IMG/VR virus record: IMGVR_UViG_3300042402_001868
Span: 1-64,000 of that record
Origin: a virus
Length of the DNA stretch: 64,000 nt
Strand: one strand, 5' to 3'
Part shown: in pieces, positions 1,408 to 64,000 of the stretch
How the letters are laid out: the number at the start of each line of letters is the position of its first letter
How positions within the stretch are numbered: the stretch's first letter is position 1
Made by a program: the position numbers and the translations under genes
The notes under the pieces: generated by a model
The model's database searches: none
What the model was told of the DNA's origin: nothing
Seen by the model: the letters and a program-made list of their open reading frames with translations, nothing else

Positions 1408-1415
1408 TATTTATA
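1408..1415 (-). promoter_or_regulatory. T4-type late promoter TATAAATA
   Basis: Exact consensus. It overlaps the portal stop codon and ends 5 nt before the ATG at 1402. Confidence 0.7.
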
Positions 1416-18182: not shown

Positions 18183-19074
18183 ATAGCAATTGTACATGAT
18201 CTAGTAGGCATTTAGCAAGAGCCTGGTGGCTCAAAGGACCAACATGTACCCCGTCTGTGCCAAAATCCACAATATAATCTGGAGAATAACAATATTCTGG
18301 GTGTGTCAGGTATTCATGCAGATATCTAGATCTATATTGATTAGAACCAGCTAGTATACTAGTTATGACAAATTTACATTTTTTAGATCGAAGATATTTT
18401 GCCCCAGCTTGCAACATTGACAGTTGATTAAAAAACAAAATGTCGTCGTTGTATACTTTTAATAACTCTCGAGAGTTGCGTAATTGGGCTTCAACTGATT
18501 GGCAGTTTTGAAATAGTGTTAGTCTTTCGGGAGTAGTTAGTTGCCATACTACTGTGTCTTGTTGTTGTATATCTGCTTCGACAAGGTGACGAAACGACCA
18601 ATGAGTTGAACTACCACCTTTAGCTATAATTTTTGAAGGTATACCAATTGCCTCACCTAGTAGCACACCAAACGATTTTTCTTTTGGTAACAATCCAACT
18701 CCGGCACTATGACTGCAACCAAACACCCATACAACTGGATCGTTGTTGTGTCTTGATAATTGTTGATTGGCATCTGTGAACACAACTGCTCGGCCACCGT
18801 GAAAATTAGTTACACGACATCTATGCTTGAGAAATTGCAATAGTAGTACAGTTTCTCTATAAAGATCTGAGTTGATATCAAATTGATCTTGTACAAAATT
18901 TACAACATCAAAATGTTTGCTAATAGAAATAATTTCTTCTGCAGACAAATCGCCTAATGAAGTGTGATACTGATCAGCAACAACCTTGATGTTTGTATTG
19001 GTAATTAATACAGATGTTGAGTTTATTAATCCAAAATCTACTACTGGATTAAACAAATGTAGTGTTTTTGTCAT
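18166..19074 (-). CDS. SGNH/GDSL hydrolase-like protein (possible acyl-esterase/transferase)
   Basis: Block I FGCSHSAG, block II GGS, block V DGVH. Confidence 0.55.
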   Translation of the reverse strand: MTKTLHLFNPVVDFGLINSTSVLITNTNIKVVADQYHTSLGDLSAEEIISISKHFDVVNFVQDQFDINSDLYRETVLLLQFLKHRCRVTNFHGGRAVVFTDANQQLSRHNNDPVVWVFGCSHSAGVGLLPKEKSFGVLLGEAIGIPSKIIAKGGSSTHWSFRHLVEADIQQQDTVVWQLTTPERLTLFQNCQSVEAQLRNSRELLKVYNDDILFFNQLSMLQAGAKYLRSKKCKFVITSILAGSNQYRSRYLHEYLTHPEYCYSPDYIVDFGTDGVHVGPLSHQALAKCLLDHVQLLYDKSI

Positions 19075-48586: not shown

Positions 48587-50329
48587 ATGGCATATACAAT
48601 TAATCTTACTGATGGTGCAGTTTTTGCAACAATAGCAGACGGCACAATCAATACATCTAGTAGCATGACGCTAGTAGGTAAGAACTATGCTGGCTATGGT
48701 GAATTCTTAGACGAAAACTTTATCCACTTGCTAGAAAATGGTTCTAACACCACAGCACCCAGTGCTCCATTAACAGGACAACTTTGGTGGGATAAAACCA
48801 ATAACTTGCTCAAAGTTTATAACGGTTCTATCTTTAAAACTATCAGTGCTGCCACTGCCAGCAGTACAGCACCTACATCAAACGTCACTGGCGACTTGTG
48901 GTACGACACAACTAACCAACAGTTAAAAGTATACACTGGTTCAAGTTTTATTGTGGTTGGTCCTGCTTATACCAGCAGTGAAGGCACCGCCGGTGCTATT
49001 CCAGGCACAGTTAATGATTCTGGTGGCTCGCCACACTTTATTACCAGCCTGTTTGTAAATAATCAGCAAATTGCCATTGTTAGTGTTGATAGTGCATTCA
49101 CTCCTGCTGCCCCTACAAATACAAATTTTCCAACAATCTATCCAGGTATCACAGTTACCAAGAGTGCTTCTAGCACACTAGCCGGTAACGTAACCAACAC
49201 TGGCAACTTGACATTAAGTGCAGGCGGAGCAACTACTGTTAATGTAACATCAACTGGTGCCAATATTGCTGGTTACTTAACTGGCACAGGTAATATCACG
49301 GGTGGTAACCTATTGTCTGGTGGTACTGCGGTTGTCACTGGCACAATTGTTGGCGGTAATCTGGGCACAGGTGGTATCATAACTGCTACAGGTAACATCA
49401 CTGGCGGCAACATTATCACTGCAGGTTCATTCCAGTCAGCCAGCATTAGCTCGTCTGGCAACATTGATGGCGGCAACCTTCGCACAGTAGGATTGGTTAC
49501 TGCTACAGGTAACGTCACTGGCGGTAACGTTATTTCAGGCGCACTAGTACAAGGTACTAACATGAGCGCAACAGCTAACGTGCAGGGCGGAAATCTACGT
49601 ACAACCGGACTGATCAGTTCTACAGGTAATATCACAAGTTCTGGCAACGTTGATGCTGTTTACTTTATTGGTAACGGGTCTGCGCTAACAGGTATCAGTG
49701 CTGCCGTTTCTGTAACAAAGATTCAAAACGGCACATCAGAAGCCAACGTTGGCGCAAGCGGTGGTAACATCAACTTCAACATTGGTGGCACATCAAACGT
49801 CGTGGTAGTATCTGGTTCAGGTATTATTGTACAAGGATTAACAACCCCAAGTATCGCCAAATCAGGTTCAAATGCTGTGGGTAATATCGGATCGGACGTT
49901 AACTACTTCAACCAAGTGTTTGCCACTGCTACCACAGCATTATACGCTGACGTTGCAGAACGATTTGAAGCAGACGAAGTCATGGACCCAGGAACTGTGG
50001 TAGAACTTGGTGGAGCCAAAGAAATCACTAGATCTCGCACAGATTTAAGCGAAAATGTGTTCGGAGTAATAAGTACAAGACCAGCGTTCACTATGAATGG
50101 TGGTGCCGGCCAAAACGATACACACCCGCCAGTTGCAATGACTGGGCGTGTACCAGTTAAAGTCGTAGGACGAGTTACCAAAGGCGACCGATTGGTCAGT
50201 GCCGGCAATGGTATTGCCCGTGCCGCACTAGCCGGCGAACCAACCCCATTTAACGTGATCGGAAGATCATTAGTGGATAAAACAACTGATGATCTAGGCA
50301 CAGTTGAAGCCATTGTAAGCATAAATTAA
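48587..50329 (+). CDS. Tail fibre protein with Gly-rich (GNITGGN) repeats and a C-terminal intramolecular-chaperone-like domain
   Basis: N-terminal LVGKNYAGYG..ENF..LLEN, two GQ/DLW.D repeats, ~16-aa TGNITGGN repeats, C-terminal YADVAERF..GVIST.P..VAMTGRVPVKV..KGD.LV. Confidence 0.75.
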   Translation: MAYTINLTDGAVFATIADGTINTSSSMTLVGKNYAGYGEFLDENFIHLLENGSNTTAPSAPLTGQLWWDKTNNLLKVYNGSIFKTISAATASSTAPTSNVTGDLWYDTTNQQLKVYTGSSFIVVGPAYTSSEGTAGAIPGTVNDSGGSPHFITSLFVNNQQIAIVSVDSAFTPAAPTNTNFPTIYPGITVTKSASSTLAGNVTNTGNLTLSAGGATTVNVTSTGANIAGYLTGTGNITGGNLLSGGTAVVTGTIVGGNLGTGGIITATGNITGGNIITAGSFQSASISSSGNIDGGNLRTVGLVTATGNVTGGNVISGALVQGTNMSATANVQGGNLRTTGLISSTGNITSSGNVDAVYFIGNGSALTGISAAVSVTKIQNGTSEANVGASGGNINFNIGGTSNVVVVSGSGIIVQGLTTPSIAKSGSNAVGNIGSDVNYFNQVFATATTALYADVAERFEADEVMDPGTVVELGGAKEITRSRTDLSENVFGVISTRPAFTMNGGAGQNDTHPPVAMTGRVPVKVVGRVTKGDRLVSAGNGIARAALAGEPTPFNVIGRSLVDKTTDDLGTVEAIVSIN

Positions 50330-50342
50330 TTAGGATAAGAAA

Positions 50343-51311
50343 ATGACATATTCAGTAGGTGGACTAATACAAGCAACAGACTATAATGGTTTTGCTAATG
50401 ACACAGGCGGCGCCAACGCCAACGCCATATGGGCAACAGGCTCCACAGATAGAGGATATGGGCAGTCGGCACTGGGTACAGTAGCCGCTACAAACACTGT
50501 TACTGCCACTCAGTGGGCCAGCTTGGTCAACACCATCAGTTCAATTGCCAGCCATCAAGGCACAACAATTACTGCCAGAACCGCACCAACTGCTGGTAAT
50601 CTTATTAATATTCTGGCAGCACTAAGCACTGACCTAACAAATTGCACTACCAACCGCGGAAATGCAGTAGCAAACGGTACACAATTTACTGGATGGACTG
50701 GTACTAACTCTAAGACTGCTACTACATCTGGTGCAAGTTGGACAATTACATTTACTAATACTGTGACATTTGCGTCAGCTGATGCCGCACGTTATTTCTT
50801 CAACGCAGGTGGCCGTATTAAAATTGACGTGGCAAAATCGTCAACTGGTAACACCGGAGATCCCGAATGGAATGACTTGGCAACTACATTGTGCGGAGAC
50901 ATTTTTATTACTGGTGGCACAGCAACTCAAACAATCGCTGGAGCATCATATACAGGTACAACCAAAGTTGGTGGTACAGGCACCCCAACCACATTGACTA
51001 CCACAACCGGTTGGTACGACTTGACTGCTGGCGCAGCCGCTACCATTGTTTACAAACAGTTTGCCGACACTGCTCCATACACAGCCAATTTTATCCAACA
51101 CTCGCTTGCAAAAGGTGCAAGTTCTAACACCTTGGTAATCACAACACTTTGGCAAAACACTGACAGCGACCCAATTACTGGTGGCACAGCTTCAAGTGGC
51201 GCAACACCTGGTACAGCCCCAACAACTATTGTAACCTATTTCCCACCAAGTTCAACATACTTGACAACTGCTGCCTGGGGCACACCCACAGTGGCAGCCA
51301 CAACAGCTTAA
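50343..51311 (+). CDS. Thr/Ala/Gly-rich virion structural protein (fibre/collar-associated)
   Basis: Composition, the ARYFFNAGG motif and its position as last gene of the tail operon. Confidence 0.6.
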   Translation: MTYSVGGLIQATDYNGFANDTGGANANAIWATGSTDRGYGQSALGTVAATNTVTATQWASLVNTISSIASHQGTTITARTAPTAGNLINILAALSTDLTNCTTNRGNAVANGTQFTGWTGTNSKTATTSGASWTITFTNTVTFASADAARYFFNAGGRIKIDVAKSSTGNTGDPEWNDLATTLCGDIFITGGTATQTIAGASYTGTTKVGGTGTPTTLTTTTGWYDLTAGAAATIVYKQFADTAPYTANFIQHSLAKGASSNTLVITTLWQNTDSDPITGGTASSGATPGTAPTTIVTYFPPSSTYLTTAAWGTPTVAATTA

Positions 51312-51329: not shown

Positions 51330-51355
51330 AAAGGGGCAATTGCCCCTTTACTTTT
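51330..51355 (+). terminator. Intrinsic terminator ending the structural operon
   Basis: Perfect 20-bp palindrome AAAGGGGCAATTGCCCCTTT followed by ACTTTT. Confidence 0.75.
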
Positions 51356-51375
51356 ATCTAAAACTAGCGTATACT
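51347..51375 (+). promoter_or_regulatory. Sigma70-type promoter for the modification operon
   Basis: TTTACT-17 nt-TATACT. The predicted +1 coincides with the ATG at 51382. Confidence 0.55.
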
Positions 51376-51381
51376 ATCACT

Positions 51382-51687
51382 ATGGATACTGATGACTTGA
51401 TTGCTCATGCACGAGCACGGTTTGATCACGTTGCCGCAAAACGTGTACTTAAAGAAAAATACGAAGCTCGTATGTTGTTTGCCTTGGCCGGAGGTATGTG
51501 GCGAGCAGGACCTGAACTACTGAATACATTGGCTACATGTCCTGACGAATCAGCTGTACTATTAGATCTGTATGAAACTCCAGTAAAGATCAATGTACGA
51601 GAACTTGAACTGGCAGCACAACAACGTTGGCAAGAGCAAATGAACGGCTGGCTTGCGGAACACGAAGAACTTAGAAAACAACGATGA
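51382..51687 (+). CDS. Hypothetical protein
   Basis: Start reassigned to MDTDDLIAH because the upstream TTG lies inside the terminator. GGMWRAGPELL..D.Y.TP motif. Confidence 0.7.
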   Translation: MDTDDLIAHARARFDHVAAKRVLKEKYEARMLFALAGGMWRAGPELLNTLATCPDESAVLLDLYETPVKINVRELELAAQQRWQEQMNGWLAEHEELRKQR

Positions 51688-52514
51688 CCCAGGGTGTGCT
51701 AATATTTGCTTTCAACAACGAGGAAACTGATTACCTTGCAATGGCCGAATGGAGTGCTGATAATATTCGTCGTCATTTAAATCTTCCTGTTAGTGTGGTT
51801 ACCAATAACAAATACACAGGTACTGCATTTGATCGTGTGATACTTGCCGATGCTGAGTCAGGCGGCACACGTTATTTCGAGGACTACAACAGCACGGTAA
51901 CCTGGCACAATGCCGGACGTGTGGATGCATATAATCTAACACCTTATGCCCAAACCATTGTGCTTGATGCAGACTATGTTGTAGCCAGCAACAACTTAAA
52001 ACGCCTGTTAAATGCATCACAAGACTTCTTGTGTCATAGAATAGCATTTGACATGGCTGGACAAACAGACATGCGTGGTCTAAACTCATTTGGCAAATAC
52101 GACATGCCCATGTGGTGGGCCACTGTAATGATGTTCCGTAAGAGCAACACTGCACAGTACATCTTTGATTCTATGCAAATGGTGCGTGACAACTGGCAGC
52201 ACTATAGAGACTTATACAACATTGATCGTGCTACATACCGCAACGACTTTGCACTCAGCATTGCTTTAGGCATTGTGAGCGGGCACACAATGAAAGTGGA
52301 TGAAATACCCTGGGCTTTAGCCAGTGTTATGCCCAACACAAAATTATTAAGGAATCTGGATCTAGATTCGTACACGATAGAATACACTGATAGTGATCAA
52401 AAACTCAAGCACATGGGCTTTGAAGGCCTGGACTTTCATGCCATGGGTAAAAAACATCTAGGAGACATTGTTGAAACCGATCGCCGAACAAGGCTACCTG
52501 ATAGTAGCAATTAA
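51684..52514 (+). CDS. Glycosyltransferase-like protein (GT-A fold, DxD)
   Basis: GVLIFAFN..Y..A, TPYAQTIVLDADY, WATVMMF, RNDFALSIA. Confidence 0.65.
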   Translation: MTQGVLIFAFNNEETDYLAMAEWSADNIRRHLNLPVSVVTNNKYTGTAFDRVILADAESGGTRYFEDYNSTVTWHNAGRVDAYNLTPYAQTIVLDADYVVASNNLKRLLNASQDFLCHRIAFDMAGQTDMRGLNSFGKYDMPMWWATVMMFRKSNTAQYIFDSMQMVRDNWQHYRDLYNIDRATYRNDFALSIALGIVSGHTMKVDEIPWALASVMPNTKLLRNLDLDSYTIEYTDSDQKLKHMGFEGLDFHAMGKKHLGDIVETDRRTRLPDSSN

Positions 52515-53256
52515 CACTCCAGGTACCAACTATGTAGGTTGTGCCGAGACGTTGGCTAAGACCATCAAGTACTGGCATCCAGATGCTGAAATTTGCTTGT
52601 TAACCAATGCCACAGATGCTAGTAATCCGCCATTGTTTGATTATGTGCGTGAGTTTCCTTATCCAGTAGACCTGGACAACCCTTGGGCAAACGACTGGCA
52701 AATATTTAAAGCAACCCCATTTCGTGAAACAATCAAACTAGAAGCAGACATGCTGATTACTAGCCCTATTGATCACTGGTGGACCTTGTTGCGCAATCGT
52801 GATGTGGTTGTTTCAACAGGTTGCAGAGATTGGCGAGACCAGCAGTCAGTAAGCAGATACTACCGCAAGGTGTTTGATGCCAATAACTTACCAGATGTGT
52901 ACAACGCCATCACATACTGGAGACTTAGCGAAACAGCCAAGGAATTCTTTGATACTGTGCGTGTGATATTTGAGAACTGGGCAGACTATCGTAAACTCAT
53001 AAAGTTTCCCGAAGATGTACCTTCGACTGATCTAGTGTATGCTATGGCAGCCAACGTCATTGGCTCAGAACGTTGTACCATGCCGTTCGCTGGCTATCCA
53101 CAGATTGTACACATGAAACGGCACCATGCAGGTAGTCAAACTGAATCATGGTTGGATGAGTTTGTGCTTGAATACCAAAACTATCTAGCTAGAATCAATA
53201 CCATTGCGCAGTGGGGAGCCTTACACTACAGAGTCAAGGAGTGGACACATGACTGA
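52468..53256 (+). CDS. Glycosyltransferase-like protein (GT-A fold), paralogue of the preceding gene
   Basis: GYLIVA..Y..CA..LA, TPFRETIKLEADML, STDLVYAMA, IVHMK. Confidence 0.65.
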   Translation: MLKPIAEQGYLIVAINTPGTNYVGCAETLAKTIKYWHPDAEICLLTNATDASNPPLFDYVREFPYPVDLDNPWANDWQIFKATPFRETIKLEADMLITSPIDHWWTLLRNRDVVVSTGCRDWRDQQSVSRYYRKVFDANNLPDVYNAITYWRLSETAKEFFDTVRVIFENWADYRKLIKFPEDVPSTDLVYAMAANVIGSERCTMPFAGYPQIVHMKRHHAGSQTESWLDEFVLEYQNYLARINTIAQWGALHYRVKEWTHD

Positions 53257-53590
53257 TGAAGAATTTTGGCAAGTTCTAAGAGACATGCCCGAACCCAAGC
53301 CTGTATTCTATCGACTGTATTACAACGAACAAGGCGAGCCCTTATTCTACAGCATGGAAGATGTTCCAGGTACATACTTGACCATTGATGCAGATGCATT
53401 TACTCGTAGTGCAACCAATGTTGTGGTGCAGGATGGCCAACTGTTTGAAATTGTCAACACCACCACTGTTAAATTATACCCCGGCGATACGGGCACACCA
53501 TGCCACCCCGATGATGTGTGCATAGTAGTACCTGAAACACACGAACACCAAAGATGGAGCAAACAAAGACATGGCCTTAAACCAAATTGA
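53249..53590 (+). CDS. Hypothetical protein
   Basis: Start MTDEEFW with SD AAGGAG. YRLYYNEQG motif. Confidence 0.65.
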   Translation: MTDEEFWQVLRDMPEPKPVFYRLYYNEQGEPLFYSMEDVPGTYLTIDADAFTRSATNVVVQDGQLFEIVNTTTVKLYPGDTGTPCHPDDVCIVVPETHEHQRWSKQRHGLKPN

Positions 53591-54503
53591 TGTAGCAGAT
53601 CTAGACTGCATTTACTTGACTTATGATGAACCACAGAAAGAAGAATTCTGGGTAAAGATACGCAACATGGTACCCTGGGCCAAACGTGTGGATGGAGTCA
53701 AGGGATCGGATGCCGCACACAAGGCAGCCGCTGCCGCTAGCGATACAGAACGGTTTATATTGATTGACGGCGACAACATGCCCGATCCAGAGTTTTTCAA
53801 TCAAACCATAACATTTCCCACAGCAGATTATGAACAAGCTGTGTTTCGCTGGAGAGCTCGCAATCATATCAATGGACTCATGTACGGCAATGGCGGTTTG
53901 AGCTCATGGACACGTGAATTTGTCAACAACATGCGCACACACGAAGCCACAGATGGGCGCACAGAAACCGAAGTAGAGTTTTGTTTTGATCCATTGTACT
54001 GGCCCATGTACGACTGCTATTCAACAACATATCCCAACGGTGATGCATTCCACGCCTGGCGTGCCGGCTTTCGTGAAGGTGTGAAGATGTGCCTAAACAA
54101 AGGCGCCAAGCCCACAGTGGAAGACTTCAAAGAACAAGCACACCGAAAGAATCTAGAGAACTTGACCATCTGGCACAACGTGGGCACAGATGTTGAGTAT
54201 GGTGAATGGGCCATTGCCGGAGCACGACAAGGCACCTACATGACCATGCTCACAAACTGGGATCATAAACAAGTACAATGGTTTGATGCGCTAGAAGAAT
54301 TATGGGCCACAGTTAAAGATAGCCAGCCAAGACTGATCAGCAACCAACTTGGTGTTGATCTAGGCACACAGTTAGATCTACCCATGGCCATACTAGAACA
54401 AGAACAAAGTGCATTCTTCAAACGTCACTATCGTAGCAATTGGCACAACCAAGGCGTCATGGTCAGAGAAATTGATGTGATACGCCGTCAAGAAGGTTGG
54501 TAA
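53571..54503 (+). CDS. Glycosyltransferase-like protein (GT-A, DGD motif)
   Basis: YDEP, RVDGVKG..AH, FILIDGDN, N.L.YGNGG, AWRAGFREGVK. Confidence 0.55.
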   Translation: MALNQIDVADLDCIYLTYDEPQKEEFWVKIRNMVPWAKRVDGVKGSDAAHKAAAAASDTERFILIDGDNMPDPEFFNQTITFPTADYEQAVFRWRARNHINGLMYGNGGLSSWTREFVNNMRTHEATDGRTETEVEFCFDPLYWPMYDCYSTTYPNGDAFHAWRAGFREGVKMCLNKGAKPTVEDFKEQAHRKNLENLTIWHNVGTDVEYGEWAIAGARQGTYMTMLTNWDHKQVQWFDALEELWATVKDSQPRLISNQLGVDLGTQLDLPMAILEQEQSAFFKRHYRSNWHNQGVMVREIDVIRRQEGW

Positions 54504-55888
54504 TGAGCAAAGGTGATCAGAGCCGATTCATGACATCGGCAGAGCAAATGAAACAGGATCTTGGTCCTGCACTATGCTTGGCAAAATGGAAACAGGTTAG
54601 TTTTCACTTGCCCACAGGACTGAACAATAGCTGTTATCACCCGCCCTTGCATCAGATCAACGCAGATGATCTTGCTCGCACAGGTGGCCTACACAACACT
54701 GCACATAAAAAACAACAGCGTGTGATGATGTTGCAAGGTGAAAAGCCCGCAGAGTGTCAGTACTGCTGGAACATGGAAAGCCTGGACAAGCTGAGTGATC
54801 GTCATTATAGATCAGGAGAACCCTGGGCAGCCGTGGACCTTGAACGCATAAAGAACTACTCGGGACAGGAAGATGATGTTGTGCCTAGTTATGTAGAAGT
54901 CAATTTCAATCATGCCTGTAATCTAAAGTGTAGCTATTGTAGTCCACAGTTTAGTTCAAGTTGGGGCGATGAAATAGAACGGCAGGGTGCTTATCCTACA
55001 TCAAAGCCGCACAATGCTCCTGAACACTTTGTGGGCAATCGTAAGCCTATTCCTGCTCGCGAAGCCAATCCTTATGTGGATGCATTTTGGGAATGGTGGC
55101 CCACGCTGTATCCACAACTAGAACACTTCCGTATGACTGGCGGCGAACCTTTAATGGACCGGAACACCTACAGAGTATTTGACTATGTGTTAGAGAATGA
55201 CAATCCCAAACTACATTTAAATGTAACATCAAACTTTTCAGTAGAAGACGCATTGTTTGAAAAGTACATGGATTATGCAAAAAAACTATGCACACCACGT
55301 ATTGAACACTTCATGCAGTATGTTAGTTTGGATTCAGGTATTGCCGCTCAGGCAGAGTACATACGCCACGGATTGGACTATGCACGTATGGCTCGTAATG
55401 TTGAAAGATTTCTTCATGAGATACCGCATCGTAACAGTCTGACATTTATCATCACCATGAACAATCTTGGTGTCACTGGATTACCGGCATTTCTAGAGTG
55501 GATATTAGAACTACGTAAAAAATATTCAACAACATATCAGCGTGTGTGGTTTGACACTCCTGTGCTTAGAGAACCTGCTTGGCAAAGCCTACAACTCTTG
55601 CCCGAAAGCTATGCTATACAACTGGAACGAGCAAGAGACTTCATGCTGGCCAACATGGTTACAGAAGAAAATTCATTGCATGGATTTAAAGACTACGAAG
55701 TACAACGACTAGAGCGTGACATTGCTTGGATGCGTGAAGGACAGAGTCAAAACTTGTCAGCGGCCAAAGCTGACTTTTATAGATTTTTCAACGAGCACGA
55801 CCGTCGTAGAGATACTAACTTCCTGAAAACGTTTCCTGAAATGCGCTCCTGGTGGGCAGAATGTGAGTACCATGCTAGGAACACATAA
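54503..55888 (+). CDS. Radical SAM protein #1 with N-terminal auxiliary Cys cluster
   Basis: CLAKW..SCYH..CQYCW, then CNLKCSYC and TGGEP. Confidence 0.9.
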   Translation: MSKGDQSRFMTSAEQMKQDLGPALCLAKWKQVSFHLPTGLNNSCYHPPLHQINADDLARTGGLHNTAHKKQQRVMMLQGEKPAECQYCWNMESLDKLSDRHYRSGEPWAAVDLERIKNYSGQEDDVVPSYVEVNFNHACNLKCSYCSPQFSSSWGDEIERQGAYPTSKPHNAPEHFVGNRKPIPAREANPYVDAFWEWWPTLYPQLEHFRMTGGEPLMDRNTYRVFDYVLENDNPKLHLNVTSNFSVEDALFEKYMDYAKKLCTPRIEHFMQYVSLDSGIAAQAEYIRHGLDYARMARNVERFLHEIPHRNSLTFIITMNNLGVTGLPAFLEWILELRKKYSTTYQRVWFDTPVLREPAWQSLQLLPESYAIQLERARDFMLANMVTEENSLHGFKDYEVQRLERDIAWMREGQSQNLSAAKADFYRFFNEHDRRRDTNFLKTFPEMRSWWAECEYHARNT

Positions 55889-56996
55889 GATTGTTGTCGA
55901 CGAATGGTCCGAAGTGTGGGACCTGCTCAAACCCTATGCAGATGAATCGTTTTGGCAACTACCTGATTTAAATCCTGAAAACATTTACATTGTTGGCCGT
56001 TTGCTGTTAAAAGACAACTGGACAACAATAACCACCTGGGCCACAGAACATCCAGGACGAATTGTGTTTTGCAATCCAGCAGAAGGCAGCGAAACAGTGT
56101 TGCTACAGCTACGTCGGTTGCGAATTGCAGATCATGTGCGTGATGGTCGCATATTGTTAATGACATCTGGTGACCTAGAACCTGGATGGAATCATTTCAG
56201 TACAGATTGTTACTTTTCAAACATTGTTGAATACCAGGAAAACAGGTCAGCACAGATACAAGCATTGTGGGAGTACTCTGATCAACGACCCTACGAGTTT
56301 TTGTTTTTAAATGGCCGCTTACGACCGCACCGTAAATGCTTAATTGACGGTCTTCGTGAGCGCAAACTGCTGGATCATGCATTGTGGTCCAATCTAGGCA
56401 GCCAAGTAGAAATGGAATTTACATCCAAGCTCGAGCCTGACAAACAAGAGTCCATAAGACTATTGCCTCCTGATTATGAAATAGAACGTGCTGTGACACA
56501 ATTAAATACTGTGAGCACATCGGGTTTTGTCAAGCATGAGCTGTTTGGTAACACCTGGGGAGATGCCATAGTCAATCATCGTTGCTATACAGACACCTGG
56601 TTCAGTTTAGTGTCTGAAACCATATTTGATTATCCATATTCATTTAGAACAGAAAAGATCTACAAGCCCATTTTAATGGCACACCCGTTTGTGGTTGCTG
56701 CCAATTGTGGCTACTTACGAGATCTACAAAACGCAGGCTTCCAAACATTTGACAGTATCATAGATGAATCGTACGACCAAATTGATTGCCCACATGCCAG
56801 GATCAAGCGTATAATAGAAACAGTGCGTTATCTTGTGAAGGGCGGCCCCGAACATTTCTGGGAGGCCAGCCGCGCCATCTGTAAATACAATCAGCAACAT
56901 CTTGTGGAGTACAATCTCGAACAACGTGCTCGACTTCCATTACTATTAGAGCAATTTTTAAATGAACGATCTAGAATTTCGTCAACAACAACTTGA
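55872..56996 (+). CDS. Glycosyltransferase-like protein (ET..TEKxxKP..GFxTF..DESYD family)
   Basis: FLNGRLRPHR, LVSETIF..RTEKIYKPI, GFQTFDSIIDESYD. Confidence 0.55.
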   Translation: MLGTHKIVVDEWSEVWDLLKPYADESFWQLPDLNPENIYIVGRLLLKDNWTTITTWATEHPGRIVFCNPAEGSETVLLQLRRLRIADHVRDGRILLMTSGDLEPGWNHFSTDCYFSNIVEYQENRSAQIQALWEYSDQRPYEFLFLNGRLRPHRKCLIDGLRERKLLDHALWSNLGSQVEMEFTSKLEPDKQESIRLLPPDYEIERAVTQLNTVSTSGFVKHELFGNTWGDAIVNHRCYTDTWFSLVSETIFDYPYSFRTEKIYKPILMAHPFVVAANCGYLRDLQNAGFQTFDSIIDESYDQIDCPHARIKRIIETVRYLVKGGPEHFWEASRAICKYNQQHLVEYNLEQRARLPLLLEQFLNERSRISSTTT

Positions 56997-58296
56997 CACC
57001 AAGTCAGCTAGCTTTTGTGCCGCTAAATGGTACAATGCTACCATATGGCTGGGCTCAGGGCAGACCACAAGCTGCCACCATCCTCCAGCACATCACGTTA
57101 CTGAAAAAGAAGTAATTATTAATCCTGCTGCCTTGCACAACACACGACAAAAACGTGATGACCGTGCAAAAATGCTAGCAGGCGAACGTCCAGCAGGCTG
57201 TGAATACTGCTGGAAGATTGAAGACATGGGCCGCGACGCCATCAGTGACCGTGTGTATAAATCACGAATATATCCTATAGAATCATTAAATGAAGCATTT
57301 AACACACCTGTACATGAAGATGTCAACCTACGCACCTTGGAAATTGCTTTTGATCGCACTTGTCAGCTTGCTTGCAGTTATTGTAATCCTGCATTTTCAA
57401 GCACCTGGGTCAATGACATCAAGCGAAATGGACCTTATGTCAAGCTGGAGTCAGATGGTCGTAACCACTTTACTCATGAGCATAATAGTGCTCAACTTTA
57501 TAAATTCGGTGAGGATAATCCTTATGTCAACGCCTTCTTTGAATGGTGGGAAACAGACCTCCATCGAACCTTACAAGAACTAAGAATCACAGGCGGAGAG
57601 CCACTAATGTCAGGCTACACCTGGAAGCTGATTGACTGGTTCAAATTGAATCAAGGCAAGTCCAATACAAAACTGGCTATTAACTCAAATCTCAGTTTTG
57701 AAACTGAAAAACTCCAGGAGTTTATTGATGCCATCAGCTCACTTCCACATGTGGAACTGTACACCAGCATGGAAGCCACAGGTGCATCAGCAGAGTACAT
57801 ACGTGATGGCCTGGACTATGCACAATGGCTGTCAAATGTAAATTTGTTGTTGCAGAGTAACACAGTAAAAGCACTACACGTGATGTGTACAATCAATGCT
57901 CTGTGCTTGACCACACTGCCTGCACTGCTGGATCAACTGCTGGAACTAAAACGCACATACGGCCGCGAGCGGGTGAACTTTACGTTAAATATATTGCGAT
58001 TTCCTAGCTTTCAATCAGCCTTGGTTTTACCTGACGACCTACGCAATCAATTCCGCAATGATCTGGCTACGTGGCTTGCAACCAATATCACCAATCCTTT
58101 ACTGCAAGAACACGAAGTAAATCACACGCAGAGATTAATAGACTATTTGGATGTGGTCAAAACTCCACACTCAGACACATTTGAAATGCCCAAGTTACAC
58201 AATGACTTCAGTGAATTTTACACACAGTACGATGTACGTAGAAACAAAAACTTTGAACTGACATTTCCCAAATTAAAGAAACTCTTAAACAAATGA
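56962..58296 (+). CDS. Radical SAM protein #2
   Basis: CAAKW..SCHH..CEYCW, then CQLACSYC and TGGEP. Confidence 0.9.
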   Translation: MNDLEFRQQQLDTKSASFCAAKWYNATIWLGSGQTTSCHHPPAHHVTEKEVIINPAALHNTRQKRDDRAKMLAGERPAGCEYCWKIEDMGRDAISDRVYKSRIYPIESLNEAFNTPVHEDVNLRTLEIAFDRTCQLACSYCNPAFSSTWVNDIKRNGPYVKLESDGRNHFTHEHNSAQLYKFGEDNPYVNAFFEWWETDLHRTLQELRITGGEPLMSGYTWKLIDWFKLNQGKSNTKLAINSNLSFETEKLQEFIDAISSLPHVELYTSMEATGASAEYIRDGLDYAQWLSNVNLLLQSNTVKALHVMCTINALCLTTLPALLDQLLELKRTYGRERVNFTLNILRFPSFQSALVLPDDLRNQFRNDLATWLATNITNPLLQEHEVNHTQRLIDYLDVVKTPHSDTFEMPKLHNDFSEFYTQYDVRRNKNFELTFPKLKKLLNK

Positions 58297-59981
58297 CACT
58301 AGATGAACTAAAAAAACAATACGATGTTGTTGGCGTAATTGATTTATCAGCTTGGACTAACAACTACGAGAACAGTACTCAGTGGCTGCGCAAACAATGC
58401 GAAGCTGTGTACCAAGCGGCCTACGCAGAAAATCAACGCATTGTATTTGTACATTCACATGATTACTATATAAAGAACGCCCACTCGGCAGGAATCATTT
58501 TAAAGAACATACAAGTGGCATTAAATGAAACTGATATTTCAAATTACTTTGCTGTGGTTCTTAGTACAAATCCCAATATTGAACAAGAAGTAGCCTATAT
58601 CAATTCACAGAGCTCTGATCCTGTGCCTGTAAAATTTGAATACATGTTGGGAAAATTTTCTACAACAGAGTTGCCCCAGCATCCTTACAGTAGAAAAGAA
58701 CAGTATCAATATGGATCAGCTAACCCTATTAAAATCAGCTTGAACGAAGTCAGTAATCAAGACAAGTTTTTACTCAGCGAAAGCAAAAACTTCTGTATAT
58801 ACCCTTGGATTCACATGCACGCCTGGCCCACAGGCGAGGCATATCCTTGCTGCCATGCCACCCATTCACCTGTTTATGGCAACACACGCAAAGAAACTCT
58901 GTTAGATGTATGGAATGGCACACGCATGCGACAACTCAGACAAGACATGTTAAACAACACTGCCAATGAAACTTGCCGTAAGTGTCACGAGCAAGAAGAT
59001 TCAGGATTCTTTTCAGGGCGACAAAGTGCCAACAAGCATCACGGGCACCATATTGATCGTGTGCATAGAACCCAGCCCAATGGCACATTTGATGAGTTTG
59101 AAATGACTTACTGGGACATTCGTTTCAGTAATCTTTGCAATTTAAGTTGCCGCAGTTGTGGACATATTTTTAGCTCAAGCTGGTATCAAGACCAAGCCAA
59201 ATTAGCCGGCGGCGATTGGAAGCAAAAAAATCCTGTGCTTAATTATGCTGGACGTACTGAAACTGACATGTGGGAACAGTTGATTCCTCACCTGGACTAC
59301 GTAGAACAGATTTACTTTGCTGGCGGTGAGCCGTTATTAATGGAAGAACACTATCGCATCTTAGACGAGTTAGTAAAACGCAAAAGATTTGATGTACGAT
59401 TGATATATAACACAAACTTCACACATACTGATTTAAAAGGTAATAGTGTATTTGAATATTGGAAACAATTTGATAGTGTGGCAGTGGGCGCAAGTTTAGA
59501 TGCAAGTGGCGCACGTGGTGAATACATACGCAAAGGCACAGACTGGGCAGTGGTAGAACAAAACCGCAGAGACATGCTGGCAATTTGTCCAGGGGTAGAC
59601 TTTTATATTTCTCCCACACTCAGCATTATGAATGCTCTACACCTACCGGACTTTCACAGAGATTGGGTGGAAAAAGGACTGTTAAAACCACAGGATCTAA
59701 ATGTAAATATATTGCAGGATCCTGTGCAATATAGACTGGACATTGCCCCATTGGCCTACAAGCAACAGGTCAAACAAAAGTTTGAAGAACACCTGGAGTG
59801 GTTGCGGGTGCAAGATCCCTTGCACAGAGCCACAGTGGGCTTTGAGTCAGCAATCAACTACATGATGAGCACCGACAACACACACCTGATTCCTAAATTT
59901 TGGAGCACAACTGATCGATTAGATGAAATTAGACGAGAAAACATCTTGGACGTGATTCCAGAATTAACGGCATTAAAATGA
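58293..59981 (+). CDS. Radical SAM protein #3 with an N-terminal extra domain and a SPASM/twitch-like Cys domain
   Basis: ~160-aa N-terminal extension, CIYPW..PCC..CRKC, then CNLSCRSC and AGGEP. Confidence 0.9.
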   Translation: MTLDELKKQYDVVGVIDLSAWTNNYENSTQWLRKQCEAVYQAAYAENQRIVFVHSHDYYIKNAHSAGIILKNIQVALNETDISNYFAVVLSTNPNIEQEVAYINSQSSDPVPVKFEYMLGKFSTTELPQHPYSRKEQYQYGSANPIKISLNEVSNQDKFLLSESKNFCIYPWIHMHAWPTGEAYPCCHATHSPVYGNTRKETLLDVWNGTRMRQLRQDMLNNTANETCRKCHEQEDSGFFSGRQSANKHHGHHIDRVHRTQPNGTFDEFEMTYWDIRFSNLCNLSCRSCGHIFSSSWYQDQAKLAGGDWKQKNPVLNYAGRTETDMWEQLIPHLDYVEQIYFAGGEPLLMEEHYRILDELVKRKRFDVRLIYNTNFTHTDLKGNSVFEYWKQFDSVAVGASLDASGARGEYIRKGTDWAVVEQNRRDMLAICPGVDFYISPTLSIMNALHLPDFHRDWVEKGLLKPQDLNVNILQDPVQYRLDIAPLAYKQQVKQKFEEHLEWLRVQDPLHRATVGFESAINYMMSTDNTHLIPKFWSTTDRLDEIRRENILDVIPELTALK

Positions 59982-61192
59982 ACATACCACACGATAAATT
60001 TTGCGTTTTGCCTTGGGTCAGCTTAGAAGCCAGTCCCATTGGTACAGTACGCCCTTGTTGTTTAGCTGATGATGAAATAGTTGACAACACAGGCAACAAG
60101 TTTGAACTCAGCACAGCTAACTTTGGGGACATACAAAATAGCAATCACATGCGTGAATTGCGACAACAGTTTCTAGCAGGAGAAAAACCGCAAACATGCC
60201 GCAAGTGCTGGAATGAAGAACGTAGCAATCGCACCAGCAAACGCATGCACACACTTAACAGACTCAAACATGTGTTGCCTGAAGGTGAATGGACTGCTGA
60301 CGCTAAACCTCTAATGTTCCTGGATCTCAAGCTGGGCAATATCTGCAATTTAAAATGCCGCATTTGCGGATCCTGGTCCAGTTCTCAGTTTGCCACAGAA
60401 GAACTAAACCAATTGCGTGGCGAAGACAAAAAAGCCAGCTTTCATTATCAGATGTTAAAACAAGGTGCCTGGCCTAAAGAAAACCTATCATTCTGGGATC
60501 AAATTGATCATATGCTAACGGACATTCGTTACATTGAATTTACTGGTGGCGAACCATTCATGATTGAAGAACACTTTGACATGCTACAGGGCATTGTTGA
60601 CCGTGGTATTGCAAATCAAGTTGAAATACACTACAACACAAATGGTACACAATTCCCCGAAAAGGCTCCAGCTATTTGGAAACATTTTAAAACAGTAGAA
60701 ATAGCATTTTCAATTGATGACATAGGAGATCGCTTTGAATATCAACGCACTAATGCTGTGTGGGCGGATGTGGTGTTCAATATTGATCGTTTCCGTTTAC
60801 TCCGGGAAGACTATCCAAATATTCAACTACAGATCTGCACCACTGTGAACGTGTTTAATGTACGTTATCTAGGCGAAGTTGCTGCCTGGATAGAACGCAA
60901 CCGTAACGCATTTAACTTTGTGTACTGGAACATGATGCACGACGCCTGGTACTTCTCTATTGCCACCTTGCCAGACACAGCCAAAACAGCCATTACAGAA
61001 TACTTAGACTCAGTTGAAACCATTTACCGAGATGAATTTGATCGCATAAGAGACTTTATGAATCGTGGCGCTTCAACAGATGGTGGCATACTGCGTATGC
61101 GTGTGCGAGATCTAGATCGTAAACGTGAACAAGATTTATCAGTTGTAGAACCTGAATTTGCCGCACTGATTAACTACACCTATGCCACTTAA
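59978..61192 (+). CDS. Radical SAM protein #4 (N-terminal SPASM/twitch-like)
   Basis: CVLPW..PCC..CRKCW, then CNLKCRIC and TGGEP. Confidence 0.9.
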   Translation: MNIPHDKFCVLPWVSLEASPIGTVRPCCLADDEIVDNTGNKFELSTANFGDIQNSNHMRELRQQFLAGEKPQTCRKCWNEERSNRTSKRMHTLNRLKHVLPEGEWTADAKPLMFLDLKLGNICNLKCRICGSWSSSQFATEELNQLRGEDKKASFHYQMLKQGAWPKENLSFWDQIDHMLTDIRYIEFTGGEPFMIEEHFDMLQGIVDRGIANQVEIHYNTNGTQFPEKAPAIWKHFKTVEIAFSIDDIGDRFEYQRTNAVWADVVFNIDRFRLLREDYPNIQLQICTTVNVFNVRYLGEVAAWIERNRNAFNFVYWNMMHDAWYFSIATLPDTAKTAITEYLDSVETIYRDEFDRIRDFMNRGASTDGGILRMRVRDLDRKREQDLSVVEPEFAALINYTYAT

Positions 61193-62120
61193 ACTGCTGT
61201 TGCATAACAATGATCGTAATTCGTTTTCTCATGGACACATTCAGTCATTGTTGCGACAGTATTTTGACATTGTGATCTGGCAGCCAAATACCATGTACAG
61301 TCAAGATCATGTGTTGGTAGTAGATTCATTTAAACTACATCGTGTTGATCCTAATTATTGGTACATATCTTATCTCAGAGATGGATACAAAGTACTGGTA
61401 GATAATATGTGGGAAATACCAAATTTTATAAACACTCATTTCCCCAAGGATGACCCTGGTTACCACGTGATGCAAAACACCAATTGGTTTTGGTACAACG
61501 AATCCTTGATGTATACCCAACAAGGATTTGATCAATATCAGCCAAATAAAACATATGATCGCCTGGCTCTCATGCCCATGCGCATTGGTCGCGGTCACCG
61601 CCGTGATCTTGTGATTGAACTAAGTAGTGTTCTGGACAATTTAATCTGGAGTTTGAATTCACATGGCCGTCAATTGCCCGACGATTTACCACAAGACCAT
61701 CCAGACTATCAGAGACATTTCAATCCTACCTGGTATGACCGCACACATTTCAGCATAGTGGCAGAAAGTCAAATTAGCAATCCAGAAATGTTTGTTACAG
61801 AAAAAATATTCAAACCCATGGCATTTTATCATCCATTTGTTGTGATGGGACAATCGGGGATATTGAATTACCTGCACACACAAGGATTTGAAACATTTAA
61901 CAATCTATTTGATGAAAATTATGACACCATTGCAGACTATTACACTAGGTTATTGGCAGTAACAGATGCAGTTAAACGCTATGCTTGTGTGCCTTATGAT
62001 ACATTAACACAACAAAAACTCGCGCACAATCACAATCGTTTCTTTGATCAAACTTTAGTAAGTACAATGTTCGTCAGAGAAATTATTGACCCTATTAAAG
62101 AATATGTTGAATCATTATGA
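61182..62120 (+). CDS. Glycosyltransferase-like protein (third paralogue)
   Basis: IVAES..FVTEKIFKPM..HPF..GFETFNNLFDENYD. Confidence 0.55.
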   Translation: MPLKLLLHNNDRNSFSHGHIQSLLRQYFDIVIWQPNTMYSQDHVLVVDSFKLHRVDPNYWYISYLRDGYKVLVDNMWEIPNFINTHFPKDDPGYHVMQNTNWFWYNESLMYTQQGFDQYQPNKTYDRLALMPMRIGRGHRRDLVIELSSVLDNLIWSLNSHGRQLPDDLPQDHPDYQRHFNPTWYDRTHFSIVAESQISNPEMFVTEKIFKPMAFYHPFVVMGQSGILNYLHTQGFETFNNLFDENYDTIADYYTRLLAVTDAVKRYACVPYDTLTQQKLAHNHNRFFDQTLVSTMFVREIIDPIKEYVESL

Positions 62121-63337
62121 TAATACCAAGTGAAAATTTTTGCATTGTGCCCTGGTTTGGAATTGAAACCACACCTGTTGGCACAGTGAGACCGTGTTGT
62201 ATTGCCCGTGATGAAATTGTGGACGACAACGGTGTTGCATTTAATCTGCATTCAAGTACATTTGACCAGATTCTGAACAGTCAGTCCATGAAAGAACTAC
62301 GTCAACAATTCCTGGACAACAACCGTCCTGCGACGTGTAACAGTTGCTGGAATGTTGAAGTTGCTGGTCACAAGAGCAAGCGTTTACAAACCTTGGAATC
62401 TGACCTGGCAAAAAATCTTGACAACCAGTCTTATACTACAGATCCTATACCATTGAAATACATTGATCTTAAACTGGGCAACATCTGCAACTTAAAATGT
62501 CGTATATGTGGTGCATTTAGCAGTAGCCAGATAGCGTCGGAAAAGGTGGCAACATTGCCACCTGACCGTAAAAAACACAGCTACGAATACAAAATGTTAC
62601 GTGATGGGGCCTGGCCAAGAGAAAGCCCTGCGTTCTGGACCGAGTTAGAAAAAGTTCTGGGCCAAATCAAAAAGTTTGACATATCAGGCGGAGAACCGTT
62701 CTTGATCGAAGAGCACTTTGATATGTTACGCAACATGGTTGCTAAAGGATATTCGCATGACACAGAAATATATTACAACTCAAATGGCACAGTATATCCC
62801 GAGTCTGCAGAAGAAATTTGGAAAGATTTTCAGACTATTAAAATAGCTCTAAGCCTAGATGATATTGGATCCAGATATGAATATCAAAGATCCAACGGAA
62901 ATTGGGGGATGGTATTAACCAATTTGGAAAAGTTCAGACAACTGCGTTCAAGACACAGCAATATCATTCTAGAAGCATGTTGCACTGTGAGTGTTTATAC
63001 TGTGTTATATCTGGCAGAAATACTAGATTGGTTACATACGCAACAGCTAGATTATGTAAACATAAATTTTTTACATTATAATCCAGCATTGAGCGTTGCT
63101 AATTTGCCACAAGGGATCAAAGATCAAATAATACATCATTTAATCAGTGCGAACCAGACTGCAAATTATGAAGAAATCTCTGTTGTGATCGATTTCATGC
63201 GTCACGGAAACAGCAACAATGATCTATCAGCTACTCTGGAATTAATAACCCATTATGATCAACTAAGGTCAACTGATCTCAGAGATTCTTCTCCTGAGCT
63301 TGCAAAAATACTAAATTACCAGTATAATAAACAATGA
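62117..63337 (+). CDS. Radical SAM protein #5 (close paralogue of #4)
   Basis: CIVPW..PCC..CNSCW, then DLKLGNICNLKCRICG and SGGEP. Confidence 0.9.
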   Translation: MIIPSENFCIVPWFGIETTPVGTVRPCCIARDEIVDDNGVAFNLHSSTFDQILNSQSMKELRQQFLDNNRPATCNSCWNVEVAGHKSKRLQTLESDLAKNLDNQSYTTDPIPLKYIDLKLGNICNLKCRICGAFSSSQIASEKVATLPPDRKKHSYEYKMLRDGAWPRESPAFWTELEKVLGQIKKFDISGGEPFLIEEHFDMLRNMVAKGYSHDTEIYYNSNGTVYPESAEEIWKDFQTIKIALSLDDIGSRYEYQRSNGNWGMVLTNLEKFRQLRSRHSNIILEACCTVSVYTVLYLAEILDWLHTQQLDYVNINFLHYNPALSVANLPQGIKDQIIHHLISANQTANYEEISVVIDFMRHGNSNNDLSATLELITHYDQLRSTDLRDSSPELAKILNYQYNKQ

Positions 63338-64000
63338 GTGATTCTTTAAATAAACCCCTGTGTGTTTTGCCATTTATACATGGTCTAATGGAAACAACCG
63401 ATCAACTGTTGCCGTGTTGTGCGTATGACCACCGTTATGGCAAACAATATCAAGTACATGAGTTTGATACCTGGTGGGAGTCTGGACTGACCGAGATTAG
63501 ACAAGACATGCTGGCCGGGCGAAAACACGAAGGCTGCAATCGTTGTTGGAAAGAAGAAGAACAAGGAATATCAAGTTACCGCCAGCGTCAGAATGAACAC
63601 TGGGCTCAATATCAAAATATCCAACAGCCTCTACCCAAGCCTGTATTTTTAATGATGGGAATTGGAAACTATTGTAATATCAAGTGTATCATGTGCTCCC
63701 CACAAAAAAGTAGTTTATGGGCTGACGAATACGAAAAGAATCAAAAAACATTTAACAAAATTGACATACGCTTTAATAACTACAGCAACGGTGCCTGGAG
63801 TGAACCGGAAAAAATTGAACGTCTACTAGATCGTGTGGCCACCAATGTAGAGATGTTGCACTTCAGCGGTGGAGAACCACTAATTACTCCGGAGTACAAA
63901 CAAGTACTACGTTCAGTGATCAATCCCGGCAATGTAGAATTACATATCAATACCAATTTGACCATGCTTAGTGAAGACTGGATCACATTATTAAAACAGT
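63334..64000 (+). CDS. Radical SAM protein #6, truncated by the window edge (not in the ORF track)
   Basis: Manual translation: MSDSLNKPLCVLPFIH..PCCAY..GCNRCWKEE..GNYCNIKCIMCSP..HFSGGEP. ATGA overlap with the previous gene. Confidence 0.88.
   Translation, partial: MSDSLNKPLCVLPFIHGLMETTDQLLPCCAYDHRYGKQYQVHEFDTWWESGLTEIRQDMLAGRKHEGCNRCWKEEEQGISSYRQRQNEHWAQYQNIQQPLPKPVFLMMGIGNYCNIKCIMCSPQKSSLWADEYEKNQKTFNKIDIRFNNYSNGAWSEPEKIERLLDRVATNVEMLHFSGGEPLITPEYKQVLRSVINPGNVELHINTNLTMLSEDWITLLKQ

Follow-up and report, generated by a model that had tools for sequence, protein, structure and literature searches.

What does a large phage make with a row of genes in which radical S-adenosylmethionine (rSAM) enzymes are interspersed with glycosyltransferase-like proteins, and to what does it attach the product? 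The question is raised by a stretch of 64,000 nucleotides (here called the window), which constitutes the first 64 kb of the 155,922-bp IMG/VR viral record IMGVR_UViG_3300042402_001868. The record (CheckV completeness estimate 45%) is a fragment of the genome of an uncultured T4-like jumbo phage; the window encodes a T4-type portal protein (1411-3192, - strand) that shares about 50% identity with its counterparts in the jumbo phages Atu_ph07, Phosso and PA5oct, as well as gp5- and gp6-like baseplate proteins. An earlier note, made from the letters of the window, described a row of + strand genes that starts at 51,382, after the tail-fibre genes, and proposed that it is an assembly line for a glycan tailored by radical chemistry; every element that it described is present in this row. 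We give about even credence to the view that this gene group, termed here the island, is a soluble cytoplasmic phage pathway, which builds an unusual glycan edited by radical chemistry.

The island and its N-twitch radical SAM enzymes

The island begins as a gapless row of overlapping or abutting open reading frames (ORFs) between 51382 and 65790, five of whose junctions are 4-nt ATGA-type overlaps, and after one 100-nt gap it goes on to 69704. Related genes extend to about 83 kb of the record, i.e. the island reaches about 19 kb past the end of the window. The rSAM genes of the row are the following (bit scores refer to NCBIfam NF033640):

54497-55888, + strand: R1, subtype I N-twitch rSAM (CxAKW..SCYH..CxYC), 306 bits
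56962-58296, + strand: R2, subtype I N-twitch rSAM, 303 bits, in a clade with R1 and R8 (support 99)
58293-59981, + strand: R3, subtype II N-twitch rSAM with an additional domain of about 160 aa at the N-terminus, 405 bits (residues 164-560)
59978-61192, + strand: R4, subtype II N-twitch rSAM, 330 bits
62117-63337, + strand: R5, N-twitch rSAM, a copy of R4 (46% identity) that falls inside the R4 clade, 330 bits
63334-64000, running on to 65790, + strand: R6 (273 bits), first half of the 818-aa R6-R7 double rSAM; two NF033640 matches in one 819-codon frame

All six are members of NF033640 (N_Twi_rSAM, twitch domain-containing radical SAM protein; curated cut-off 170 bits), with scores of 273-406 bits and matches that span the whole model (positions ~1-397). 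R7 scores 273 bits, and the cut-off is exceeded in none of the 14 control genomes. The earlier count of at least six rSAM paralogs with CxxxCxxC and GGEP motifs is correct for the window, where R1-R6 are true paralogs, and it understates the island, which contains 10 rSAM genes with 11 rSAM domains; in the whole record we found 14 NF033640 matches above the cut-off, along with four or five further rSAM/SPASM genes. In its part past the window the island includes R8, R9, two other rSAM/SPASM genes, and the genes termed C3 and C4. The motifs CxxxCxxC and GGE(P) were found in R1-R9, and CxxxCxxC together with GGEP is kept in all distinct orthologs of R1 (34), R2 (31), R3 (24) and R4 (25). The Pfam Radical_SAM model matches R1 and R4 above, and R2 and R3 below, its gathering cut-off.

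Four invariant Cys residues precede the rSAM core (in R4 these are C9, C27, C74 and C77), and the Pfam SPASM model matches N-terminal segments of R3 (residues 168-232) and R4 (residues 9-78), in agreement with the earlier placement of the auxiliary Cys cluster ahead of the core. The seven-Cys motif that would bind the two auxiliary clusters of a full SPASM domain was not found: the invariant auxiliary Cys residues number four, and subtype I has exactly four, which is consistent with one cluster, i.e. a twitch domain. The possibility that the N-terminal auxiliary domain represents a new architecture was rejected, because this trait defines the curated family NF033640. The division into two subtypes also holds: R1 and R2, together with R8 past the window, make up a clade (support 99) in which the pattern CxAKW..SC[YH]H..CxYC occurs, and the others carry CxxPW..PCC..CxxC.

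A scan of IMG/VR with C1, one of the glycosyltransferase-like proteins described below, returned 47 loci, across which the gene order was compared. About 45 of the 47 exhibit the same order, headed by the gene of a giant 4949-aa protein and followed by p201, two fibre proteins, s115, A1, A2, s128, B, variable inserts, R1, C1, R2, R3, R4, sometimes C2, R7, u368 and a carbamoyltransferase. Orthologs of the rSAM proteins are mostly 63-92% identical (R3 and R4 down to 48-52%), and paralogs 18-46%. The tree gives each of R1, R2, R3, R4 (which includes R5) and R7 its own clade, with a long stem and support of 99-100; therefore, the duplications predate the divergence of these phages. In comparisons with three relatives, every island gene has a ratio of nonsynonymous to synonymous substitution rates (dN/dS) of 0.02-0.13. 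Copies of NF033640 above the cut-off number 9-15 in each of four near-complete relatives, whose lengths are 320-364 kb and one of which has terminal repeats, and 8 in a fifth, which is 72% complete. R4 has more than 7700 metagenome protein clusters at E<=1e-10, and R4 and B have thousands of close phage or metagenomic homologs each, none of which is informatively named. This phage island is real, conserved, and abundant.

Some members of the set deviate from the common plan. The extra N-terminal domain of R3 (58293-58781), which precedes the twitch domain, matches no family and seems to be present in only some relatives, judging by the open frames at the best NF033640 matches (572 vs 422-434 codons); R3 is also the paralog nearest on the tree to the bacterial members that we found. 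The R6-R7 fusion comprises two complete N-twitch rSAM units in a single ORF and occurs only in the source phage and one other contig (L013), while about 22 other contigs possess R7 alone, of about 430 aa; the fused paralogs may be physical partners. R5 was likewise found only in L013 among the relatives, so R5 and R6 are confined to the source phage and its nearest relative.

Glycosyltransferase-like proteins and sugar enzymes

Paralog families were identified by BLAST clustering of the ORFs of the record, which yielded three families (A, B and C) without a match to a glycosyltransferase (GT) model of Pfam or NCBIfam. Their members in the window are:

51684-52514, + strand: A1, 276-aa protein with an LDAD motif; GT8-like (GT-A) as a lead only
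52468-53256, + strand: A2, paralog of A1 (22% identity) in which LEAD replaces LDAD; phrog_1903, annotated as unknown function
53571-54503, + strand: B, 310-aa protein with a GT-A-like N-terminal domain and D66-G-D68; AlphaFold model, pLDDT 94
55863-56996, + strand: C1, GT-B-fold protein with the motif E..TEKxxKP; AlphaFold model, pLDDT 91
61182-62120, + strand: C2, paralog of C1 (TEK-motif, GT-B-like), present only in some relatives, 27-86% identity
13530-14639, - strand: C0, TEK-motif GT-B-like paralog in a second small group of sugar genes, assigned by BLAST cluster and motif

Family C comprises C1, C2 and three more copies in the record, and its invariant residues are R157, E252, E264, K265 and K268, within the E...TEKxxKP motif. 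The earlier note had called the EKxxKP proteins GT-like, and the structural comparison bears this out for C1: 49 of the 50 matches listed by Foldseek, and all 50 listed by VIA-align (Z 10.8-12.6 over 258-300 aligned residues), are GT-B glycosyltransferases. At the nominal top stands the alpha-1,3-fucosyltransferase of H. pylori from family GT10 (PDB 2nzw/2nzx; Z 12.6 with 268-273 residues aligned); some 20 further GT-B entries, among them the alpha- and beta-glucosyltransferases of T4, score within 1 Z unit of it, and all the listed matches within 1.8. The E...TEK...P motif of C1 resembles the nucleotide-sugar motif of GT10. Neither C1 nor C2 matches any Pfam or NCBIfam family at E<=0.01, GT10 included, and the family profile has no match among PDB sequences; with the profiles of C1, B and u368 this search returned only chance matches. 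In the BFVD database C1 matches many proteins of uncultured phages as well as glycosyltransferases of giant viruses, and one of its phage relatives is fused to a UDP-glucose/GDP-mannose dehydrogenase domain.

The best Foldseek match of B is the PBCV-1 capsid glycosyltransferase A64R (2p6w, E 2.6e-4, probability 1.0); the probability is also 1.0 for K4CP and HddC, and 0.94-0.96 for RmlT. In VIA, residues 5-156 of B match GT-A glycosyltransferases with Z 9.2-7.5 (best 9.2 over 140 residues). Among 59 distant relatives D66 and D68 hardly vary; B proteins are 65-98% identical among the relatives, and the family contains 1387 clusters at 50% identity. No Pfam GT2 model scored above threshold for B, and a Pfam scan of the 59 relatives gave nothing usable. 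Judging by its model, B is likely a glycosyltransferase. For family A the 19 best matches of the profile in PDB are all glycogenin, at weak E-values (0.15-0.76), with LDAD aligned on the DxD of glycogenin; its feature neighbors in the ESM Atlas carry Nucleotid_trans/GT8, a Pfam match was obtained for none of 23 members, and hhalign detected no relationship between families A and B. The assignment of A1 and A2 to GT8 is therefore given here as a weak lead from sequence. The earlier note spoke of three GT-A proteins with DxD and suggested a check of folds by AlphaFold and Foldseek: this check returned GT folds for C1 (GT-B) and B (GT-A-like, with a conserved DxD), and A1 and A2 stay unproven.

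Genes for sugar-nucleotide enzymes accompany these proteins. In the part of the island past the window we found a NodU/CmcH/TobZ-type carbamoyltransferase (E 5.6e-48 and 8.9e-36), a DegT aminotransferase (E 1.2e-62), which is present in all five genomes searched, and an epimerase/dehydratase of the short-chain dehydrogenase/reductase (SDR) type (E 4.1e-43). With the carbamoyltransferase, DegT and SDR in the island, a sugar-centred pathway is the most economical reading. C0 has as its neighbors an SDR epimerase (15440-16402) and a UDP-glucose dehydrogenase-like gene (16399-17169).

The surroundings of C0 differ from the arrangement in T4. In the region 11452-18197 (- strand) a Rad50/SbcC-like gene (11452-13533) and an Mre11-like metallophosphatase gene (17166-18197) flank four inserted genes, which encode C0, a 274-aa protein, the SDR epimerase, and the UDP-glucose dehydrogenase-like protein (256 aa, of truncated appearance), whereas in T4 the genes for gp46 and gp47 are adjacent. 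A 378-aa protein (8064-9200) shows a weak match to the arginine-deiminase/amidinotransferase superfamily (E 0.0012), and the small protein before it (region 7630-9200) a weak match to ATE_C (arginyl-tRNA-protein transferase); paralogs of the 378-aa protein are encoded at 73047-74072 (- strand) of the record, inside the island, and at 98470-99525. The island also contains two small proteins, a protein termed u368, and, past the window, a 1203-aa protein with a degenerate B-like domain:

51382-51687, + strand: s115, conserved 101-aa protein, first gene of the island; orthologs of about 101 aa, 53-93% identical
53204-53590, + strand: s128, small poorly conserved protein; orthologs 36-95% identical
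65741-66847 of the record: u368, 368 aa, directly after R7 in nearly every related contig, 37-90% identity

The u368 protein has many invariant Trp, His and Glu residues and no match in Pfam, NCBIfam, PHROGs or PDB sequences. For s128 there was no match in Pfam, NCBIfam or PHROGs, and for s115 none in PHROGs, which was the only database searched in this case. PHROGs suggested no function for s115, s128, u368, u226, C3, or the 1203-aa protein.

Proposed pathway, acceptor and alternatives

In the pathway that we propose, phage-encoded SDR, DegT-type aminotransferase, UDP-sugar dehydrogenase-like, carbamoyltransferase and amidinotransferase-like enzymes would reshape nucleoside diphosphate (NDP) sugars of the host, and the GT-A-like B (perhaps also A1 and A2) and the GT-B-like TEK family (C1, C2 and others) would move the sugars to an acceptor. 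The anciently diverged N-twitch rSAM proteins would act next, with R1, R2, R3, R4 and R7 as the core, to which this phage adds R5, R6, R8 and R9. By means of a 5'-deoxyadenosyl radical, and with electrons conducted through the N-terminal [4Fe-4S] cluster, each of them would make one distinct oxygen-independent edit on a sugar carbon, the candidate edits being oxidation, epimerization, dehydration, and C-C or C-methyl formation. The most likely acceptor would be a virion protein encoded just upstream, i.e. the 4949-aa baseplate/fibre protein or the fibre proteins rich in Ser, Thr and sequons. Sugars as the substrates of the rSAM proteins, the type of chemistry and the acceptor are what we infer. 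The earlier proposal of glycan assembly followed by radical tailoring is borne out in its components (rSAM paralogs, the GT-B protein C1, the GT-A-like protein B, sugar enzymes); the action of the rSAM proteins on sugars is its conjectural part. More tentatively, a whole clade of jumbo phages, abundant worldwide, may put on its own fibre or baseplate proteins a glycan whose sugars are rewritten by a fixed series of five or more domain-permuted rSAM enzymes, each with a different oxygen-independent C-H functionalization.

The structural genes in question, and the element that separates them from the island, are:

32935-47784, + strand: giant 4949-aa baseplate/fibre-associated virion protein; PHROG annotations baseplate wedge tail fibre connector and virion structural protein
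48587-50329, + strand: 580-aa fibre-like protein; PHROG virion structural protein, with GN[IV]TGGN repeats
50343-51311, + strand: 322-aa Thr/Ser/Ala/Gly-rich fibre-like protein, at a position conserved among related contigs
51330-51349, + strand: strong terminator-like hairpin between the last fibre gene and the island; 8 bp stem with 5 G-C pairs, T-rich tail

Three fibre-like genes follow the 4949-aa ORF, which heads the conserved gene order in about 45 contigs, and the last of them stops at 51311. In Ser+Thr content (23% and 30%) the two fibre proteins beside the island rank first among the sizeable proteins of the record. In the 580-aa protein the Ser+Thr content (23%) and the density of N-x-S/T sequons (3.1 per 100 aa vs the record median of 0.75) are both in the top decile of the record, and its long run of GN[IV]TGGN-type repeats contains one sequon in every repeat. 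The Ser+Thr content of the 322-aa protein (30%), which had no match in a PHROG search, is the maximum among the sizeable ORFs and is exceeded only by a 108-aa ORF at 83696-84022. All three proteins (4949, 580 and 322 aa) are candidate acceptors; the location of the island beside the baseplate/fibre module and the Ser/Thr-rich, sequon-dense fibre proteins would fit an acceptor in the virion.

The idea that the row forms one operon with the fibre genes was rejected: the terminator-like hairpin stands in between, and immediately upstream of the island there is no late-promoter motif. The T4 late-promoter motif TATAAATA occurs at 48554, shortly 5' of the gene for the 580-aa protein, and is not enriched (4 found vs 2.5 expected). 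The hairpin is a near-perfect palindrome, AAAGGGGCAATTGCCCCTTT, and overlaps the TTG start (51340) of the first island ORF in the program-made list (51340-51687), hence the real start of s115 is the ATG at 51382.

The earlier note left virion proteins, DNA and the host surface as possible targets. Searches for the enzymes diagnostic of the individual targets covered the source record (45% complete) and the four near-complete relatives (92-100% complete). They returned no ThyA-family hydroxymethylase (PF00303) and no TGT/DpdA homolog, no Bac_transf initiating transferase and no Wzx flippase (Polysacc_synt; WecA-type transferases and ABC exporters were not searched), no DHQ-synthase-type cyclase (PF01761), and no sugar-1-phosphate nucleotidyltransferase; no island protein possesses a convincing transmembrane segment. 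These absences argue against an envelope polysaccharide, against 5-hydroxymethyl-pyrimidine or 7-deazaguanine modification of DNA, and against an aminocyclitol. Together with the presence of DegT in all five genomes, they point to soluble enzymes that use the NDP-sugar pools of the host on a soluble acceptor. DNA and the host surface are thus disfavored as targets, and virion proteins would remain.

Four other explanations deserve consideration. It is unlikely that the rSAM proteins modify the fibre or baseplate proteins themselves (by cross-links, epimerized residues or C-methylation), in the manner of the SPASM/twitch enzymes that act on peptides made by the ribosome and modified after translation (RiPPs) or of the anSME type, the GT-like proteins acting separately. 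Most characterized SPASM/twitch rSAM enzymes do act on peptides or proteins (PMC11002830), repetitive fibre genes adjoin the island, two small conserved ORFs (s115 and s128) have no explanation, and there are weak secondary NCBIfam matches to sactipeptide, ranthipeptide and other peptide maturases, but these lie far below the cut-off (15-66 bits vs 250-720). Moreover, Pfam and NCBIfam scans of R1-R4, in which the twitch domain fills the N-terminus, detected no RRE/PqqD-like domain, a short precursor gene, Cys-rich or repetitive, was not seen either, and the sugar-nucleotide enzymes are conserved alongside the rSAM proteins. Less likely again is a diffusible small molecule (aminoglycoside- or nucleoside-like, or a modified lipid) that would serve the infection, e.g. 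against competitors or in manipulation of the host. The enzyme set matches the aminoglycoside toolbox (DegT/StrS aminotransferase, TobZ/NodU carbamoyltransferase, an amidinotransferase-like enzyme, BtrN-like twitch rSAM proteins, and glycosyltransferases), with only a weak match in the case of the amidinotransferase-like paralog (ADI, E 0.0012), and the bacterial neighborhoods of N_Twi_rSAM resemble lipid or polyketide pathways. Against such a product stand the lack of a carbocycle synthase of the DHQ-synthase type in the four near-complete relatives, the absence from the island of an acyl carrier protein (ACP), ketosynthase, prenyltransferase or predicted membrane (transporter-like) protein, and the fixed position of the island beside structural genes.

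Remodeling of an envelope glycan of the host (lipopolysaccharide, capsule or S-layer), which might block superinfection or the binding of progeny to debris, appears quite improbable. Phage glycosyltransferases that alter the O-antigen are well known (Gtr systems), and enzymes for carbamoyl- and amino-sugars are typical of O-antigen loci, but the five genomes encode neither a Bac_transf-type initiator nor a Wzx-type flippase, no island protein has a convincing transmembrane segment, and the record of this T4-like phage shows no sign of lysogeny. Very improbable, finally, is hypermodification of the phage DNA in the style of the glucosylated hydroxymethylcytosine of T4 or of thymidine hypermodification. 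C1 matches the beta- and alpha-glucosyltransferases of T4 with Z 11.6-11.8, a score tied with those of other GT-B enzymes, and some pathways of DNA hypermodification and of 7-deazaguanine involve rSAM enzymes; yet the thymidylate-synthase-family pyrimidine hydroxymethylase and TGT/DpdA are missing, as described above, and the island is located in the structural module and not in the replication module.

Several findings also weigh against the glycan pathway that we favor. The GT assignments rest on fold, since A, B and C match no GT model of Pfam or NCBIfam, and nucleotidyltransferases of the same fold score Z 7.7-8.1 against B, nearly equal to the glycosyltransferases, because of which B is likely, not proven, to be one. 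The terminator-like hairpin stands between the fibre genes and the island, and fibre proteins are often rich in Ser and Thr without being glycosylated. Neither a flavodoxin nor an A-type Fe-S carrier was found in the record, a negative result that says little because the record is only about 45% complete. Further points come from bacteria, whose NF033640 members were sampled with the R3/R7 sequence pair, so that the sample is biased to R3/R7-like members. In Paenibacillus sp. (contig L070, 4281-15745) N_Twi_rSAM is located beside an ACP, two ketosynthases, FabG, an acyl-AMP ligase and a GT2; in a Cytophagales genome, beside a MerR/B12 regulator and a pyridoxal-phosphate-dependent decarboxylase; and in a metagenome-assembled genome (MAG) of Saprospiraceae two copies accompany a UbiA prenyltransferase and a PhyH dioxygenase. 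These contexts lie outside glycan loci, therefore NF033640 as a whole is not sugar-specific, and the sugar reading of the phage enzymes would derive solely from their phage neighborhood.

Arrays of N_Twi_rSAM genes occur in cells too, possibly acting on lipid-like substrates: a Spirochaetaceae MAG (contig L068, 1194-7524) contains a tandem array of three N-twitch copies and a fourth rSAM gene without a SPASM match. The clade of the source phage has no cultured member. Among cultured phages, relatives were detectable only in Vibrio phages K566 and K567 and Ralstonia phage RsoM2USA, in addition to one marine single-virus fragment, at about 22-25% identity; Vibrio phage K566 possesses a mini-cluster with four N_Twi_rSAM copies.

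Relation to known systems and significance

We found no functional study of NF033640 in the literature and no paper on rSAM-rich glycosyltransferase islands in phages, in line with the remark of the earlier note that no characterized phage pathway with this composition is known. The likeness to NF033640 consists in the 14 matches of the record over the full model, the N-terminal four-Cys twitch-like domain, and the CxxxCxxC and GGEP motifs; the family itself is a catalogue entry, whereas in the phage clade it is expanded into two subtypes and one fusion (R6-R7) and set among GT-like genes. BtrN (2-deoxy-scyllo-inosamine dehydrogenase), one of the twitch-domain rSAM enzymes with carbohydrate substrates, shares with the phage enzymes a single four-Cys auxiliary [4Fe-4S] site and a carbohydrate-pathway neighborhood (aminotransferase, glycosyltransferases), but its twitch domain is C-terminal, in contrast to the N-terminal one of the phage rSAM proteins, and we saw no significant sequence match to it.

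Soluble glycosyltransferases and sugar-nucleotide enzymes encoded by viruses are known to decorate virions without the secretory machinery of the host, e.g. on the capsid of chlorovirus PBCV-1 (A064R, A111/114R), the fibrils of Megavirinae, and the capsid and tail of mycobacteriophages (PMC7826918, PMC9614988, PMC10117803). The island resembles these systems in that the A64R domain is the best Foldseek match of B and giant-virus glycosyltransferases match C1. It differs from them in that no use of rSAM enzymes is reported for the pathways of chloroviruses, Megavirinae and mycobacteriophages (radical SAM enzymes go unmentioned in a large 2022 review of giant-virus glycans), and in the source phage glycosylation of the virion would be deduced from genes. 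Nishimura et al. 2017 (PMC5332604) described a marine environmental viral genome of T4-like type that has 12 radical SAM genes, but there the genes were only counted, in the context of Fe-S metabolism, and their family and neighborhood were not analyzed. The architecture of the island would be that of virus-encoded glycan biosynthesis expanded with an orphan rSAM family.

Carbohydrate-acting rSAM enzymes are few, and each of them has revealed new chemistry; here one domain-permuted family persists as five or more distinct orthologs that purifying selection maintains, and the phage clade is so widespread that individual genes have metagenomic relatives by the thousand. The enzymes of the island are soluble and of ordinary size, which makes the question directly testable. 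If their substrates are not sugars, the island would still be an entry point to the function of NF033640, a family present also in bacterial tandem arrays. Should the products end up on virions, the island would represent a new type of glycosylation encoded by a virus, with a bearing on host recognition, particle stability, and the evasion of receptor-masking or lectin-like defences. Radically edited glycans on the fibre or baseplate proteins, if they exist, would constitute a class of viral glycans and of carbohydrate radical reactions without characterized precedent, and would provide the first function for NF033640.

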